A stretch of DNA of 62,876 bases, filler included. It is 4 parts of 4 records of this genome, joined end to end, with 100 filler letters (N's around TTAATTAATTAA, not from the genome) between each part and the next. Parts side by side here need not be neighbours in the genome. Positions count along the whole stretch, not along the records: positions 19,835 to 51,066 come from SRR20825019_2229; 3 more parts are not named here. One strand, written 5' to 3'. This document shows, one piece after another, positions 33,174 to 40,015 of this stretch; position 1 is the stretch's first letter, and each line of letters opens with the position of its first letter. Both the position numbers and the translations under genes were made by a program. The notes beneath the pieces were generated by a model. It was not told the origin of the DNA. It searched no databases and worked only from the letters and a program-made list of their open reading frames with translations.

Positions 33174-33740
33174 ATGGAGCAAAGTGAAACAAACTCTCAG
33201 TTCAACGCGGAATTACTTTGTCCGGCCAAGCCCGGCGAAGGCGCTCCCTGGGCCTTTATTGTTCTGCCCCGGGAGGCAAGCAAAAAGCTTCCCAGGCGGG
33301 GAAGAACAACGGTAGAGGCCAGCCTCAACGGTCATCATTTTCAGGTAACGCTCGAGCCCGATGGTCAATTGAGCCATTGGCTAAAGGTGAGCAAGGAACA
33401 TCTCGAAGCTGCAGGTGTGAGCGTCGGTGATGTTGTTGATTTGGGCATCAGGCCGGTGGACCAGGAACCTGAACCAGAAGTTCCCTCGGACCTGCAAGAG
33501 GCGTTGGAAGCGGCCCCCGAGGCTCGGGTGGTTTGGAATGAGACAACCACCATCGCGCGTCTGGACTGGATTCATTGGATTGTCTCAGCCAAGCAGGCAA
33601 AAACCCGGACGAAGCGAATTAGCGATGCGTGCGACATGCTGGCCTCGGGAAAGCGGCGCGTTTGCTGCTTTGATCCTTCAGGGTATTACAGCAAAGCACT
33701 CAGTGCGCCCAAGGCGGCGGACACACAGGAGATTGGATGA
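33174..33740 (+). CDS. DUF1905 + YdeI/OmpD-associated (OmdA) domain protein
   Basis: EPDGQLSHWLKV; VPSDLQEAL...WIHWIVSAKQAKTRTKRI. Confidence 0.82.
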   Translation: MEQSETNSQFNAELLCPAKPGEGAPWAFIVLPREASKKLPRRGRTTVEASLNGHHFQVTLEPDGQLSHWLKVSKEHLEAAGVSVGDVVDLGIRPVDQEPEPEVPSDLQEALEAAPEARVVWNETTTIARLDWIHWIVSAKQAKTRTKRISDACDMLASGKRRVCCFDPSGYYSKALSAPKAADTQEIG

Positions 33741-35125
33741 GCAAGCCCGTTGTATCAAGCCCCCTGCGGCGAGCTTTCCCGCTTGTCGCAATCCTTTTGC
33801 TCACCGCCTGCGATGCGCCACAACTTCTTCCGCCTGACGCCCGCCTTCCGGACGGCAGTACCTATTCCGGTGATATTCAGGATGGTTACTTTCACGGTGA
33901 AGGCGTTCAGGAATTTGCCAGTGGCATGGTCTACACCGGCCAGTTCCAGGAGGGCTACTGGCACGGCCATGGTGAGCTCGAATCTCCGGCGGGTTGGCAT
34001 TACGAGGGCGAGTTCCAGAAAGGGACGATGTCGGGACAGGGCGTAATCGAAGACGACGGCAGTCGCTACGAGGGGGAATTCCGGAACGGTGAGTTTCACG
34101 GTGAGGGGCGTTACGAAGCCGGTGGCAGTGTCTATATCGCTGAGTTTGAAGATGGCGAGCCCGTGGAGGGAAAACACGTTACGGATTACGGCACCTACGA
34201 AGGGGAGTTCCGTGACTGGTATTACCACGGGGAAGGCAGCTACGCCTTTACCGGCGAATCGGAGGATCTGGGTAGCCTCACAGGAACCTGGGAGTTTGGT
34301 GAGTTCGTCGACCAGGAAGAGTACGTCGCGGAAGCACCTGTCCCGGAAGAACCAGCGCTTTTGACTGAGACTGTTCTCGTCGAAGACCGTCGGCGCCTGA
34401 GCAACCAGATCGAGAGTCTCGCCCCGGAACAGGCGGGGGCGGCAGACGCCTACTTCCTGGCCGTGGGTGGCGACGGTACCGAGTCGGTGTTCATGCGCGA
34501 TATCCAGGTTGCCAAAACTGGCCTTCAGGCGCAGTTCGATGTGGAAAACCGCATCATCATGCTGCTCAATCACCGGGACTATGAAACGTTTCCTCTGGCT
34601 ACCCGGCCATCCATTGCCTCAGCTCTGGAGGCATTGGATGCGCAGATGAACCCGAAGGAAGACCTGCTCGTGGTTCACTTGGTCAGCCACGGTATGCAAA
34701 ACGGACAACTGCTGTTGCAGCAACCCGGTATCGAGTTGCCGAACCTCTCGCCGCAGGATTTTGCGGAAATGCTGGAACCACTGAACGTGCGCCGAAAACT
34801 GCTAGTGATTTCCGCATGCTACTCCGGCCAGTGGATAGAGCCACTCAAGGACGAAGACACACTGATCATGACCTCCGCCCGGTCAGACCGTACCTCTTTC
34901 GGCTGTGGTGATGACTCGGAGATGACCTGGTTCACCAAGGCGGTTTATCAGAGTGTGGGGCTGTCATTGGCCGACCCTGATGCCATGTTCGAGAACATCA
35001 ACCAGCAGATCCGAACCTGGGAAGAAGAGATTGGTATGGAAGAATCGAATTGGTCCTATCCCCAGTCGCACGTCGGTGAGAACCTGCGTAAGTGGTTGAG
35101 CCAGATGTCTCAAACTACGCCATAG
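33737..35125 (+). CDS. Lipoprotein with MORN repeats and C-terminal C13 (legumain-like, clan CD) peptidase
   Basis: Lipobox LLTAC; repeated YxGxFxxGxxHGxG; catalytic dyad HLVSHG and ISACYSG; SFGC. Confidence 0.88.
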   Translation: MSKPVVSSPLRRAFPLVAILLLTACDAPQLLPPDARLPDGSTYSGDIQDGYFHGEGVQEFASGMVYTGQFQEGYWHGHGELESPAGWHYEGEFQKGTMSGQGVIEDDGSRYEGEFRNGEFHGEGRYEAGGSVYIAEFEDGEPVEGKHVTDYGTYEGEFRDWYYHGEGSYAFTGESEDLGSLTGTWEFGEFVDQEEYVAEAPVPEEPALLTETVLVEDRRRLSNQIESLAPEQAGAADAYFLAVGGDGTESVFMRDIQVAKTGLQAQFDVENRIIMLLNHRDYETFPLATRPSIASALEALDAQMNPKEDLLVVHLVSHGMQNGQLLLQQPGIELPNLSPQDFAEMLEPLNVRRKLLVISACYSGQWIEPLKDEDTLIMTSARSDRTSFGCGDDSEMTWFTKAVYQSVGLSLADPDAMFENINQQIRTWEEEIGMEESNWSYPQSHVGENLRKWLSQMSQTTP

Positions 35126-35153: not shown

Positions 35154-36374
35154 ATGGACCCGATGATCACAGCCGCTGGCCGAGCGCTTGCGATGGGCGA
35201 CCCGTTGGCCGCGCTGAACTGCGTTGCCTTGCGCGACGACGCGCAGTCGCTTGCGCTGCGTGGCATCGCCATGGCTCAGCTCGGAGAACTGGACCGGGCC
35301 AGGGTGTTGATAGGCAACGCTACCCGTGCTTTTGGTTCGCGGGAACCGTTGGCACGTGCAAAGTGCATTGTGGCCGAGGCGGAAATTGCGCTTGCTTCCC
35401 GTGATCTCGGCTGGCCATCCCGCAAGCTTGACGCAGCGCGCGAGGTGCTGGAACAGCATGGCGACCGGGTGAATGCAACGCATGCGCGCTATATCGATAT
35501 CCGGCGCCGGCTGCTGATCGGTCGACTCGATGAAGCTGAGCTCGAACTGGGGGTTATGGACGTAGCCTCGTTGCCGCCGGCGTTGAGAGCCATCCATGAA
35601 CTTATTGTTGCCGGGATCGCTATGCGGCGCCTGGAAACCCAGGTGGCACGCGATGCGCTCCTGCAGGCCGAACGCGCCTCACAGCACGCCGGTATTCCGG
35701 CTCTTGTGGCTGAAGTCGCCAGTAAAGTTGAACTTCTGGGCTTGCCCGCCGCTCGCCTGACCAGGATGGGGAGTGAGCGGTTGCTGCTTCTAAATGAAGT
35801 AGAAGCGTTAATGGCGTCCCAGGCGTTTGTGGTCGACGGATGCCGTTTTACCGTGAAGCACAAGGAAGCTGTTGTGTCACTCGCGACGCGCCCTTTGCTG
35901 TTTGTGTTGCTTCGCATCATGGCTGAAGCCTGGCCCAAAGAAGCATCCAGAGACGAGCTGATTGCACGGGCGTTTCGCATGAAACAGGCTGATGATTCCC
36001 ATCGTGCGCGTCTGCGGGTGGAGATCGGGCGCCTTCGTGAGTTATTGAAGCCGTTGGCAACCGTGGATGCCACCTCACGGGGTTTTGCACTGGTGCCCCA
36101 TGAGGCGTGCGAGGTGGCCGTCCTGGCACAGCCAGTGGAGGAAAAGTACGCGCCTATACTGGCACTGCTTTCCGATGGTGAGTCCTGGTCGAGTTCCGCC
36201 TTGGCTCTGGCGTTGAATATCGGCCAGCGCAGCGTGCAGCGGGCACTCGATACGTTAGCGACAGAAGGCAAGGTTTATTCGTTTGGCCGGGGCCGCAACC
36301 GCCGCTGGACAACGCCACCCATTGCCGGATTCGCGACAATCTTGTTACTCCCTGGTTCACTGGCCCTTGGCTAA
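35154..36374 (+). CDS. Uncharacterised DNA-binding protein (TPR-like helices + two HTH/wHTH domains)
   Basis: GDPLAALNCVALRDD...LRGIAMAQLG; HRARLRVEIGRLR; WSSSALALAL...SVQRALDTL. Confidence 0.8.
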   Translation: MDPMITAAGRALAMGDPLAALNCVALRDDAQSLALRGIAMAQLGELDRARVLIGNATRAFGSREPLARAKCIVAEAEIALASRDLGWPSRKLDAAREVLEQHGDRVNATHARYIDIRRRLLIGRLDEAELELGVMDVASLPPALRAIHELIVAGIAMRRLETQVARDALLQAERASQHAGIPALVAEVASKVELLGLPAARLTRMGSERLLLLNEVEALMASQAFVVDGCRFTVKHKEAVVSLATRPLLFVLLRIMAEAWPKEASRDELIARAFRMKQADDSHRARLRVEIGRLRELLKPLATVDATSRGFALVPHEACEVAVLAQPVEEKYAPILALLSDGESWSSSALALALNIGQRSVQRALDTLATEGKVYSFGRGRNRRWTTPPIAGFATILLLPGSLALG

Positions 36375-36403: not shown

Positions 36404-37036
36404 ATGACCATGAAACAGTTTAGTGCAGAGATTCTCAACGAGTACGGCCCCTTCCACGGAGCTGAGCAGATCCATGGGGTTACATTCGATGGGCAGCGCG
36501 TCTGGTTTGCGTCCGGTGACAAACTGAATGCAATCGATCCGGATAGCGGCAAGCCGGTCGATTCCCTTAGTGTGCCCGCACAAGCCGGGACCGCTTTTGA
36601 CGGACACCATATTTTCCAGATTGCGGACAGCCAGATTCAAAAGGTTGATCCAAAAACCGGCGAGGTACTTGGAACCATCCCTGCGCCAGACGGCTGCTCG
36701 GGGCTGGCATGGGCGGAAGGTTCTCTCTGGGTGGGGCAGTATCAGGCGTGCAAGATTCATCAGCTGGACCCGCAAACAGGGAAGGTTCTTCGTAGCATCG
36801 AATCCAACCGACATGTGACCGGTGTTACCTGGATCGACAGCGAACTTTGGCACGCCACCTGGGACGGTGACGACAATGAGATCAGGCAGATCGACCCCCA
36901 GACCGGGGACGTTCTGAAAAGCATTGCAATGCCGTCCGGCGTTGGCATATCGGGGCTTGAGGCCGATGGCCGTAGTCGCTTCTTCTGCGGAGGTGGCCAG
37001 AGTGGGAAGTTGAGGGTTGTTCGTCGTCCGGATTAG
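36404..37036 (+). CDS. Glutaminyl-cyclase/Vgb-like beta-propeller protein, no signal peptide
   Basis: Repeated IDPxTGxVLxSI blades; AGTAFDG, SGLAWAEG, FFCGGG. Confidence 0.78.
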   Translation: MTMKQFSAEILNEYGPFHGAEQIHGVTFDGQRVWFASGDKLNAIDPDSGKPVDSLSVPAQAGTAFDGHHIFQIADSQIQKVDPKTGEVLGTIPAPDGCSGLAWAEGSLWVGQYQACKIHQLDPQTGKVLRSIESNRHVTGVTWIDSELWHATWDGDDNEIRQIDPQTGDVLKSIAMPSGVGISGLEADGRSRFFCGGGQSGKLRVVRRPD

Positions 37037-37098: not shown

Positions 37099-38343
37099 CT
37101 AGATGTCTCGTGATTCAAACTCTGTATTGCGCGGATCAAGTTCCTCAACCCCCAATCCTGCTTCCGGAGTGACGGTGTAGTACTGCTCCTGCTGCTCCAC
37201 AGTTGGGTGTTGGCGCTTCGGCCCCGCAACCATGAACAGGATCAGCCCTCCCAGCATCAGGGCATTGCTGACGAAAAGGCCCCGCGGCCCCAGAAGGTCC
37301 ATGAACAGGGAACTGACCAGCGGGCCGATGATGCTGCCAATGCCGTAACTCAGTAACAGTGCTGTGCTCGCTGCGGTGATCTGGTGGGTTTCCATCAGGT
37401 CATTGGTGATGGCCACAGCGATGGGGTAGATGGCAGCACTGATGCCCATGTACAACCCGACAAACAGCACCAGGGCCACCATGCTGATGTTGCCAATAAT
37501 GGCCGCAGCCAGACTGCACACGGCAGCGACGATGGCGGCCACCAGCATGACCCGGTATCGGTCGAAGCGGTCGCACAGTTGCCCGATGGGCCAGGCCATC
37601 AGCATGGCAGCCACGATGGCCGAAGCCATGAAGTTGGAGAGCTGCCCGAGGTTCAGGCCAATCTGATTGGCGTACACTGGTCCCATGGCATAGAAGGCAC
37701 TGATGAGCAGCCCGGCGATCAGTGCGCCGAGCGTGCCCGTTGGTGACTTGTTATAGAGTTTACGTAATGACAGGCGTTCACCCTGCGAAACCGACGGTGA
37801 CTCCCGGCGGGTCATTGTCAGGGGGGTGAGGGCGAGCACCACCAGGATGGTGGCCAGGGAAAAGGGAATAAAGCCCGCCGGGTCGGCGACGCGTATCAAT
37901 ACCTGACCCCCGGCAGTGGATAGGAAGAAGATGACCTGGTAAATGGCAAACAGGCTGGCCCGGTTACGGTTGTCGGCCTTGCTGCTGAACCAGCTTTCCA
38001 TCACGATCATCAGGCCGGCCATTACGAAGCCGCCCACGGCCCGCAGGCCACCCCAGAGTCCGGCCTGGACGGCCATTGGATAAATCAGAATCGAGGCAGA
38101 AAGCACCGCGGCGAAAACCGCGAACGCGCGGATGTGTCCCACCTTTTCAATGATGCGCCCGGCATAGAGCGTGCCGGCCACAAAGCCGATGGAGTAGAAC
38201 GCCAGGATCCACCCGATCACACTGGCGCTGAAGTCTTCGATGCTGAGCCTGAGCCCCAGCAGGGTCATGAGGAAAGCGTTACCCGCGATGAGCAGAATGA
38301 TGCTCAGGATCAGTGACGTCAGGCTGATGATGGTTTGCCGCAT
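37099..38343 (-). CDS. MFS transporter (YcaD-like)
   Basis: About 12 TM; VGHIRAFA, VMESW, DRFDR, GSIIGP. Confidence 0.92.
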   Translation of the reverse strand: MRQTIISLTSLILSIILLIAGNAFLMTLLGLRLSIEDFSASVIGWILAFYSIGFVAGTLYAGRIIEKVGHIRAFAVFAAVLSASILIYPMAVQAGLWGGLRAVGGFVMAGLMIVMESWFSSKADNRNRASLFAIYQVIFFLSTAGGQVLIRVADPAGFIPFSLATILVVLALTPLTMTRRESPSVSQGERLSLRKLYNKSPTGTLGALIAGLLISAFYAMGPVYANQIGLNLGQLSNFMASAIVAAMLMAWPIGQLCDRFDRYRVMLVAAIVAAVCSLAAAIIGNISMVALVLFVGLYMGISAAIYPIAVAITNDLMETHQITAASTALLLSYGIGSIIGPLVSSLFMDLLGPRGLFVSNALMLGGLILFMVAGPKRQHPTVEQQEQYYTVTPEAGLGVEELDPRNTEFESRDI

Positions 38344-38517
38344 CAATCGTCGGTCCCCGCTTGTCCGCTAGTCTGGATGTCCGTATAAGTTTGTGGGGTT
38401 GTGCGGAAATACTGTAGTGATGGTCTCGCTTGAATTAAAGGGGCCCATCCGATCCGTCTGTGGTGTGAATTCGTGCGCTGTTGAGAACAGCGCTTCAGAG
38501 GTGAGGTAGAAAGTTCA

Positions 38518-38745
38518 TTGACGCCGGAACAAATCGATACCCTGCTGGAAACCATCCCCGACGCCCGTGACGGTCTCACCCGCACGGAGCGGATCATTCT
38601 CTATGTGTTACACGAAACCCAGCATGAGTTAAAAGGTCGTAACGTGCCAACGGTTATGCTCTATGGCCGGGTGGTGGAATACGTCAACATCAGCGAAGCG
38701 GAGCTCCATGTCTATCTGGACAGGTTGGGTGTGAGGGGCGGCTGA
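38518..38745 (+). CDS. 75-aa mini-protein resembling the GyrA/ParC N-terminal (QRDR) segment
   Basis: TTG start preceded by GAGGTGAGG; IPDARDGLTRTERIILY resembles GyrA LPDVRDGLKPVHRRVLY. Confidence 0.75.
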   Translation: MTPEQIDTLLETIPDARDGLTRTERIILYVLHETQHELKGRNVPTVMLYGRVVEYVNISEAELHVYLDRLGVRGG

Positions 38746-38848
38746 GTTGCCCCAGGTCATTGATTTTCGCCGTTCATTATTTGCGCAAACGCTAATCCAC
38801 TGTTAGGTTTCTAGTCAGGGCTTCATCCTGAATTCATAGGGAGAGCGC

Positions 38849-39265
38849 ATGGCAGACACCGTCACTGACTTGCTGGTCCGCTACTGGGCCACCGGCTTCT
38901 TCATCGTTGCCACATTGGGCCTTTGTGCCTTTATGGTGGGTGCCTCCAGCTTGCTTGGAGGGCGTAGCCGGGGTGTCAGCAAATCCCTCCCTTTCGAGTC
39001 CGGCATCGTCGGCACCGGTGATGCCAGACAACGCTTTTCCGTCAAGTTTTATCTGGTCGCGATGCTGTTCGTGATCTTCGATATCGAAGCCGTGTTCCTG
39101 TTTGCCTGGGCCATTGTCATTCCCGACGTGGGCTGGACAGGATTCTGGGGCGCGGCGGTTTTTATCCTGATTCTGCTGGCCGGTCTGCTCTATGACAGTC
39201 GTACCGGTGCCCTGGACTGGGCCCCGGAATCATCCAGCGGTAGACCTCGTAGTCCGGCAGGCTGA
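38849..39265 (+). CDS. nuoA: NADH-quinone oxidoreductase subunit A
   Basis: [26 protein letters not shown]. Confidence 0.97.
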
Positions 39266-39337
39266 TTCAACGCACCCGATTACGGCGCGGGCCAACGGTG
39301 ATTTCGCTGTTGGGACCAGCGCCCATGGAGGCGCAGC

Positions 39338-40015
39338 ATGTCCTACACACTGACCAGAGCGGAACCTTCGCCGGACGGTGACACGCAATACCCGGTACGG
39401 CAACAGGAACCGTCGGAAGATCCGGTGAAACGCCAGCTTGAACGCAATGTGTTCACCGGCAAGCTGAGCGACGTTCTCAATTCCGCGGTCAACTGGGGCC
39501 GCAAGAATTCCCTTTGGCCCTACAACTTCGGGCTGTCCTGCTGCTACGTGGAAATGACCACGGCCTTCACCGCGCCCCACGACATTGCCCGTTTCGGCTC
39601 CGAAGTTATCCGCGCATCGCCCCGACAGGCGGATTTCATGGTGATTGCCGGCACCTGCTTCATCAAGATGGCACCGGTGATCCAGCAACTGTACGACCAG
39701 ATGCTGGAGCCCAAGTGGGTAATCTCCATGGGCTCATGCGCAAACTCCGGCGGTATGTACGACATCTACTCGGTGGTGCAGGGCGTCGACAAGTTCCTGC
39801 CAGTGGATGTGTATGTGCCCGGTTGCCCGCCCCGGCCAGAGGCCTTTCTGCAGGGGTTGCAGTTGCTGCAGGACTCCATCCAGGAAGAACGCCGCCCGCT
39901 GTCCTGGGTGGTGGGCGATCAGGGGGTCTATCGGGCGGAGATGCCGTCCCAGCGTGAAAAATGGCGGGACCAGCGCATCCAGGCCACCGAACTGAGAACG
40001 CCGGACAAACTGTGA
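39338..40015 (+). CDS. nuoB: NADH-quinone oxidoreductase subunit B
   Basis: [33 protein letters not shown]. Confidence 0.98.

Follow-up and report, generated by a model that had tools for sequence, protein, structure and literature searches.

A 75-codon open reading frame (ORF) 5′ of nuoA encodes a conserved, stand-alone and non-catalytic paralogue of the GyrA and ParC winged-helix domain (WHD) core. The ORF lies in the window, by which we mean the whole stretch of 62,876 nucleotides (filler included) that was analysed. A first-pass annotation had described its product as a free-standing copy of the GyrA/ParC N-terminal winged helix that lacks the catalytic residues, and profile searches, profile-profile alignment and a confident three-helix model all bear out that description. 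The family to which the protein belongs descends from the first three helices of the gyrase/topoisomerase IV A subunit, without the catalytic parts. From the sequence comparisons, we regard the protein as a truncated form of the winged helix of type IIA topoisomerases, one that constitutes a family of its own. We are highly confident that the ORF is a real gene and that it is homologous to the GyrA/ParC WHD core.

A short gene in the intergenic region 5′ of nuoA

The ORF occupies a 502-nt intergenic gap between an MFS transporter gene and nuoA (Table 1). The first-pass annotation had assigned it a ribosome-binding site and a stop codon of its own, and we found the stop codon, a TTG start and, preceding that start, a purine-rich, Shine-Dalgarno-like element, GAGGTGAGG. 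An in-frame TGA at 38482-38484 stands 11 codons 5′ of the ORF, and the TTG is the first possible start past it. Close orthologues share this start position, where they carry either ATG or TTG. A simple scan of positions 38200-39000 found no sigma-70 promoter and no terminator, and a search of Rfam returned nothing above threshold. Two studies provided RNA-seq libraries whose assembled contigs cover the ORF (identity of 99% or higher), and two such contigs, spanning 37900-39513 and 38406-39357, bridge the ORF and nuoA. These contigs are a weak sign of expression, with a single transcript unproven and DNA carry-over possible. The nuoA neighbourhood is found in just 2 of the 18 related loci examined. 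Within the nuo operon, the fused nuoCD ORF has a predicted start at 39961 that overlaps the end of nuoB at 40015 by 55 nt (window 39961-40015), and the true nuoCD start is probably a downstream codon.

Table 1 Positions in the window of the 75-aa ORF, its sequence elements and its neighbours
Feature	Position	Strand	Remarks
Stand-alone homologue of the GyrA/ParC winged-helix three-helix core	38518..38745	+	75-aa ORF, TTG start, TGA stop
Shine-Dalgarno-like GAGGTGAGG	38498..38506	+	Purine-rich, 11 nt 5′ of the TTG; read from the sequence
PDARDGL, codons 14-20	38557..38577	+	PDxRDGL motif in common with GyrA 35-41
Predicted helix, codons 22-37	38581..38628	+	Equivalent to the GyrA helix from residue 43; invariant R25 (GyrA R46)
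Predicted helix, codons 45-52	38650..38673	+	Equivalent to GyrA helix 66-77; invariant G50 (G71) and R51; V52 (V73)
Predicted helix, codons 60-70	38695..38727	+	Equivalent to GyrA 82-92, the quinolone-resistance helix; preceded by VNISE
MFS transporter, divergent 5′ neighbour	37099..38346	-	No conserved partner
nuoA, 3′ neighbour	38849..39265	+	First gene of the nuoA-B-CD... operon; followed by nuoB and fused nuoCD
406-aa ORF	35154..36374	+	Two genes 5′ of the 75-aa ORF; no Pfam family at E ≤ 1e-5
210-aa beta-propeller-like protein	36404..37036		Flanks the 406-aa ORF
Peptidase_C13 + MORN protein	33737..35125		Also beside the 406-aa ORF

The first-pass annotation had suggested a check for purifying selection. 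Over the 60-codon core of 78 sequences, the median dN/dS was 0.055, calculated from the 2205 of 3003 pairs with dS > 0.1 (median dN 0.095; median dS 1.58, which is near saturation). The gene is under strong purifying selection. Of the 25 same-genus genomes that were sampled, 22 carry it, and none of the 16 genomes from other genera of the same order had a match to the 75-aa query. The three same-genus genomes without a match are 100%, 88% and 77% complete. In a fourth, complete Marinobacter-genus genome, a startless 27-codon C-terminal remnant (L017; G020:C19, 1528-1611, minus strand) is 91% identical over residues 52-74, indicating that the gene can decay. The gene is dispensable in some relatives: a match is missing from one complete genome of the genus, and another has just this remnant.

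The nearest genome carries a full gyrA and a parC besides the small gene. Its parC matches PF00521 in two consecutive pieces of 327 aa and 469 aa, which do not share an open frame (L020/L021, G001:C1:106949-108257), a split that is a frameshift or an assembly error. A window-wide tblastn with 571 residues of GyrA and 311 of ParC detected nothing near the 75-aa ORF other than the ORF itself.

A short ORF with a TTG start, placed in an intergenic region just 5′ of nuoA, could be a non-functional leftover: a fragment of a gyrA or parC gene, or else an ORF that arises spuriously within the nuo leader. We regard this reading as almost certainly wrong. The low dN/dS argues against it, as do the thousands of same-length homologues across several phyla, the differing genomic contexts of the members, the flanks without topoisomerase-like sequence and the confidently predicted fold. 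Likewise, the first-pass annotation had contemplated an orphan sequence amid decayed gyrA or parC flanks, and what we found instead was thousands of conserved short homologues and clean flanks.

Relationship to the winged helix of GyrA and ParC

BLASTP against the N-terminus of GyrA from the nearest genome aligned residues 12-53 with GyrA 33-74, ungapped and with 11 of 42 residues identical, which agrees with the gapless alignment to the P35 region of GyrA drawn in the first-pass annotation. ParC of the same genome matched over 22 residues. In Pfam, PF00521 (DNA_topoisoIV) matched residues 13-53 on profile positions 3-42 of 432 (E 0.005; 16.2 bits against a cut-off of 31), and the NCBIfam model TIGR01063 (gyrA) scored 11.3 bits against a cut-off of 877; all of the topoisomerase family matches lay below the curated cut-offs of these two collections. 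PF00521 was matched by 25 of the 25 members of the family alignment, with a best E of 4.4e-5, and other families by at most two members each. When a profile of the family was compared with PDB sequences, 31 of the 37 matches at E ≤ 10, including the top 24, were GyrA or ParC (best E 0.005). Of 59 members compared with PHROGs, 16 matched phrog_551 (best E 5.5e-8) and 17 matched phrog_20354. Both are families named "DNA topoisomerase II", and every other PHROGs family was matched far less often. The profile searches give a specific GyrA/ParC signal, and not the generic winged helix-turn-helix match that the first-pass annotation had named as the outcome that would speak against it. A match to gpW, the phage lambda head-tail joining protein (PF02831; E 0.13; score 12.6 bits, cut-off 22.5), was present in 2 of 25 members and was set aside as chance, as was a weak match to KipI.

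Profile-versus-profile alignment, which we take to be the decisive test of homology, was performed with hhalign on 59 diverse family members and 10 GyrA, ParC and phage topoisomerase II N-termini. The two alignments matched with 96.2% probability (E 2.3e-9) over 66 columns, and the neighbouring 406-aa protein, used as a negative control, reached 0.2%. Residues 6-71 were placed on GyrA 27-93 with a single one-residue gap after V53, the gap with which the first-pass annotation had paired Y55 with Y77 and R69 with R91. Two longer family members, P0268 (95 aa, from a 14.9-kb contig) and P0221 (101 aa, from a 582-bp contig), have an additional helix before PDVRDGL that matches GyrA/ParC residues 8-34 (hhalign probabilities of 98.0% and 98.9%, respectively). 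These proteins may represent intermediates of an ancestral-like form; alternatively, they may be chimeras that arose at the motif in common.

Compared with the WHD of GyrA, ParC and phage topoisomerase II (CAP-like, PF00521), the small protein has the same PDxRDGL cap followed by three helices in register. P14, D15, R17, D18, G19 and L20 are invariant in 25 Marinobacter-type members. Paired with P35, D36, R38, D39, G40 and L41 of GyrA, they vary little or not at all in either alignment, which also holds for R25/R46, L28/L49, G50/G71 and V52/V73. These kept residues form the skeleton of the WHD fold. In GyrA, the glycine of helix 66-77 sits where the two WHDs touch at the DNA gate. The family also has invariant residues without a GyrA counterpart, namely P44, R51 and E54, and a near-invariant Y49.

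The 75-aa protein differs from the GyrA/ParC domain in what it lacks. K42 and P43 of GyrA are replaced by T21 and R22, R47 by I26, and the HPHGD loop by VNISE. R32, R47, H78 and H80 of E. coli GyrA are implicated in breakage-reunion. At these positions, at K42 and P43 and in the loop, the aligned residues are E11, T21, R22, I26, V56, I58, S59 and E60, and R46 alone is kept, as R25. The protein ends at approximately GyrA 97, ahead of R121 and Y122, which are invariant in the 10-sequence GyrA/ParC alignment, and everything from the beta-wing onward is absent. On these points, the claims of the first-pass annotation that the chain stops short of the Tyr122 equivalent and that the HPHGD loop is replaced hold. 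The tower, the coiled-coil (C-gate) and the beta-pinwheel C-terminal domains are missing as well, the ORF being 75 aa long and its flanks containing no GyrA-like sequence. Because its scores fall below the cut-offs and it has neither Tyr122 nor the other domains, the protein is not GyrA or ParC proper.

The two domains also differ in charge. The 60-residue core of the family is near-neutral, with a median net charge of -1 and a pI of 6.1 in 397 sequences, and a charge of -2 in 120 Marinobacter-type sequences; by contrast, the same region of 10 GyrA, ParC and phage sequences has a charge of +3 to +5 and a pI of 9.5-10.3. A near-neutral domain set against a strongly basic GyrA equivalent would lean toward protein binding over DNA binding, although it proves nothing.

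AlphaFold2, run with the family alignment, predicted helices at residues 3-11, 22-37, 45-52 and 60-70 and no strands (pLDDT 83.7), a model whose predicted fold is a generic winged-helix-type three-helix core. The first-pass annotation had called for profile and structure searches against the topoisomerase domain. The profile arm gave the GyrA/ParC match described above, but the structural arm did not: Foldseek against the PDB returned nothing at E ≤ 0.001, and its best hit was Fur at E 0.43. An exhaustive VIA-align search gave Z scores of 5.2-6.8, a range common for small helical domains, over 49-66 aligned residues, with winged helices of ORC/Cdc6, YceH, MCM and MarR type at the top. GyrA was not among the best 50 rows, from which no exclusion follows. 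A low-confidence model of the GyrA N-terminus built from 10 sequences (pLDDT 54.9) has helices at 43-54, 66-77 and 83-92 that, under the hhalign mapping, are in register with helices 22-37, 45-52 and 60-70 of the small protein.

Generic winged-helix and helix-turn-helix (HTH) proteins (Fur, MarR/SlyA, ORC/Cdc6, the MCM C-terminal winged helix and YceH) resemble the protein in being the best structural neighbours of its model, and differ in having no significant sequence relationship to it. Several of the best neighbours of this three-helix, winged-helix-type model bind DNA (Fur, MarR/SlyA, LexA, MecI and ORC/Cdc6), the parental GyrA winged-helix domain itself contacts DNA, and, outside Marinobacter, some members are basic when the whole chain is counted (median pI of 7.9 in 145 representatives). 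The protein could on these grounds be a small HTH DNA-binding protein, a transcription or nucleoid-associated factor that is probably a dimer and is built on the inherited GyrA WHD scaffold. We consider this unlikely, if well short of far-fetched. The core is near-neutral to acidic where that of GyrA is positively charged, the model has no beta-wing and no wing strands, and each of the Pfam HTH families was matched by at most one of 25 members. Across the family, conservation within the domain is lowest in helix 3, the would-be recognition helix. Furthermore, the upstream regions hold no conserved operator-like motif, with no common k-mer beyond clade-level synteny and a LexA-like box in one of 79 regions, and no divergent target gene is conserved.

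Distribution and genomic contexts of the family

Of the 588 candidates of a single-sequence search, 587 reached E ≤ 0.01 and are close homologues; the 120 matches listed are 70-96 aa long, and those with names are mostly Marinobacter "hypothetical proteins". HMMER with a Marinobacter profile against 1.84 billion cluster representatives found 418 proteins at E ≤ 1e-3, of which 316 were at E ≤ 1e-10. These are clusters at 50% identity, and the 150 listed range from 57 to 176 aa. In a profile search of 90% clusters, at least 5,669 of the 8,000 candidates scored were family proteins, with source names that included Gammaproteobacteria MAGs, Polyangium and Myxococcales; JGI names 4 of the 120 members listed from this search "DNA gyrase/topoisomerase IV subunit A". 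Contigs from one genome per species, searched with a query alignment of 18 sequences, gave 602 pattern matches; relatives are encoded by 569 of them, and the best 80 of these 569 come from Marinobacter, its kin Halospina and Halovibrio, and a few MAGs. Members from soil metagenomes form an abundant subfamily (584 of 601 matches). The family spans Marinobacter, other Gammaproteobacteria, Myxococcota and soil metagenomes, and all 58 other members of the diverse alignment are at least 44% identical to the window protein. Cultured lineages seldom have it: of 401 genomes spread evenly over the phylum, five matched, three in Marinobacter, one in another family of the class and one that was GyrA itself.

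Nearly all members are stand-alone, and longer forms are rare, a search limited to 133-2000 aa having returned six proteins. In three of these (P0405, P0406 and P0407), DUF6929/DUF6910, a domain of unknown function, is N-terminal to a soil-subfamily domain, and this fusion is the only multi-domain architecture seen more than once in that search. P0404 has the family domain with a 70-residue leader. P0162 is a 176-aa fusion to, or read-through into, a PAS domain recognized by Pfam. At one locus (L018, 693-1871, plus strand), no stop interrupts the frame of the small gene over 392 codons upstream, where it runs antisense to a neighbouring gene; antisense read-through of this kind makes spurious "long" database entries such as P0403, another of the six. 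A SEC-C zinc motif is N-terminal to the domain in two metagenomic proteins (P0147 and P0247), and 2 of the 80 Marinobacter loci (L045, ~5960; L077, ~5837) place a SEC-C ORF directly 5′ of the small gene, the stop of this ORF overlapping the start of the small gene in L045. The SEC-C association is recurrent but rare.

The 80 Marinobacter-type loci (L023-L102) have no universal neighbour and fall into several clade-level arrangements. The commonest neighbour cluster occurs in 30 of the 80, at varying positions, and the next ones in 16, 14 and 11 loci. The members of the commonest cluster are large, multi-domain signalling paralogues within three genes of the small gene; the group was judged GGDEF/PAS-like by eye, and PAS was confirmed by Pfam for P0162 alone. 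In 80 soil-metagenome loci, the largest neighbour cluster was present in six. Neither set of loci showed an operon partner.

A phage origin was considered and rejected: there were 11 weak viral-contig loci, and the seven examined all encode full-length topoisomerase II A subunits of 719-929 aa. A small stand-alone gene of the family was not found among these seven. PADLOC defence models gave nothing meaningful, with two single-member matches at E ~0.01 among 59 members.

These contexts bear on the idea that the protein is a sponge for an attacker of the GyrA/ParC winged helix, such as a toxin, a bacteriocin or a phage gyrase inhibitor, and protects the enzyme by titration while leaving the topoisomerase untouched. 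The protein keeps a GyrA-like surface motif without the catalytic residues, the family is patchily spread and the gene is occasionally lost, and a 2024 review describes small gyrase-targeting proteins as widespread, some of them binding GyrA (PMC10886550). We nevertheless judge a sponge to be improbable. No toxin, immunity or defence gene is adjacent and no neighbour is conserved in the two sets of 80 loci, the PADLOC matches and the seven viral loci examined gave no sign of such a role, and the very high sequence conservation is unlike that of typical arms-race proteins.

A candidate topoisomerase-directed microprotein and known gyrase modulators

We propose that the small protein may act as a protein-protein interaction module, or "microprotein", whose retained WHD surfaces would dock on a partner of the parental domain. 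The likeliest partner would be the TOPRIM-tail region of GyrB/ParE or the WHD-WHD contact of the DNA gate. Docking would modulate or protect gyrase or topoisomerase IV, and the small protein itself would neither bind nor cleave DNA. A protein-protein role with a conserved universal partner is suggested because basic and catalytic residues have been lost, conservation across phyla is strong and there is no dedicated partner gene. The very high cross-phylum conservation would fit such a partner, and the lack of a conserved neighbour would fit one encoded elsewhere, for instance the essential topoisomerases. The first-pass annotation had suggested a decoy that could bind GyrB/ParE or soak up a gyrase-targeting toxin or phage inhibitor; a role as decoy or modulator is plausible.

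Several observations count against this mechanism. The model fold is a generic winged helix, the family scores lie below the cut-offs, some invariant residues are specific to the family, and the gene is dispensable in some relatives. The residues held in common could be purely fold-stabilising, and the function could have drifted away from topoisomerases. In addition, a 60-residue domain would cover a small part of the GyrA-GyrB interface, and its competition with GyrA may be weak. Weighing both sides, we hold a topoisomerase-directed mechanism for the proposed microprotein to be a real possibility that falls short of probable. More specific, and in our view rather unlikely though worth stating, is the proposal of a new class of endogenous regulators that act on type IIA topoisomerases. 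In this view, the family would consist of GyrA-derived microproteins, made of the WHD core alone, that dock on the GyrB/ParE TOPRIM-tail or on the contact that helix 66-77 makes between the two WHDs at the DNA gate, and that tune, cap or protect gyrase or topoisomerase IV. Beside this mechanism, the DNA-binding protein and the sponge, the rest of the probability goes to some unrelated function.

Gyrase and topoisomerase IV are essential enzymes and major antibiotic targets. If the small protein is a regulator, it would be the first gyrase modulator to have evolved through truncation of the enzyme's own subunit, and it would serve as a naturally occurring probe for the surface that surrounds the quinolone-resistance region. 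Contact with a topoisomerase would amount to a new regulatory principle and would provide a natural ligand for the DNA-gate/TOPRIM surface. If there is no such contact, the family would still be a clean case of an essential-enzyme domain spun off for a new use. Databases name its members "hypothetical protein" or, automatically, "DNA topoisomerase (ATP-hydrolyzing)", and the family merits a domain entry of its own, which would end the latter naming. A search of full-text literature, with most subscription journals outside its coverage, found no publication on the family.

The 2024 review, which deals with protein inhibitors of gyrase, lists ParE, CcdB, TsbT, microcin B17, Gip and Igy (both phage peptides), FicT, Qnr/MfpA, YacG, MurI and GyrI (PMC10886550). 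No modulator that it lists derives from GyrA or is related to the enzyme in sequence, and the words "decoy", "GyrA-like" and "winged" each occur zero times in its text (PMC10886550). The families of the known gyrase modulators were absent from the Pfam matches of 25 members and from the NCBIfam matches. Like GyrI/SbmC, YacG, MurI, the Qnr/MfpA pentapeptide proteins, CcdB, ParE, Gip and Igy, the 75-aa protein is small, and like many of them it stands alone. These modulators act on gyrase by direct binding, and regulation or protection of the enzyme in this way is the role that we propose for the 75-aa protein. They differ from it in origin: the 75-aa protein descends from the GyrA/ParC domain, whereas none of these modulators derives from GyrA.
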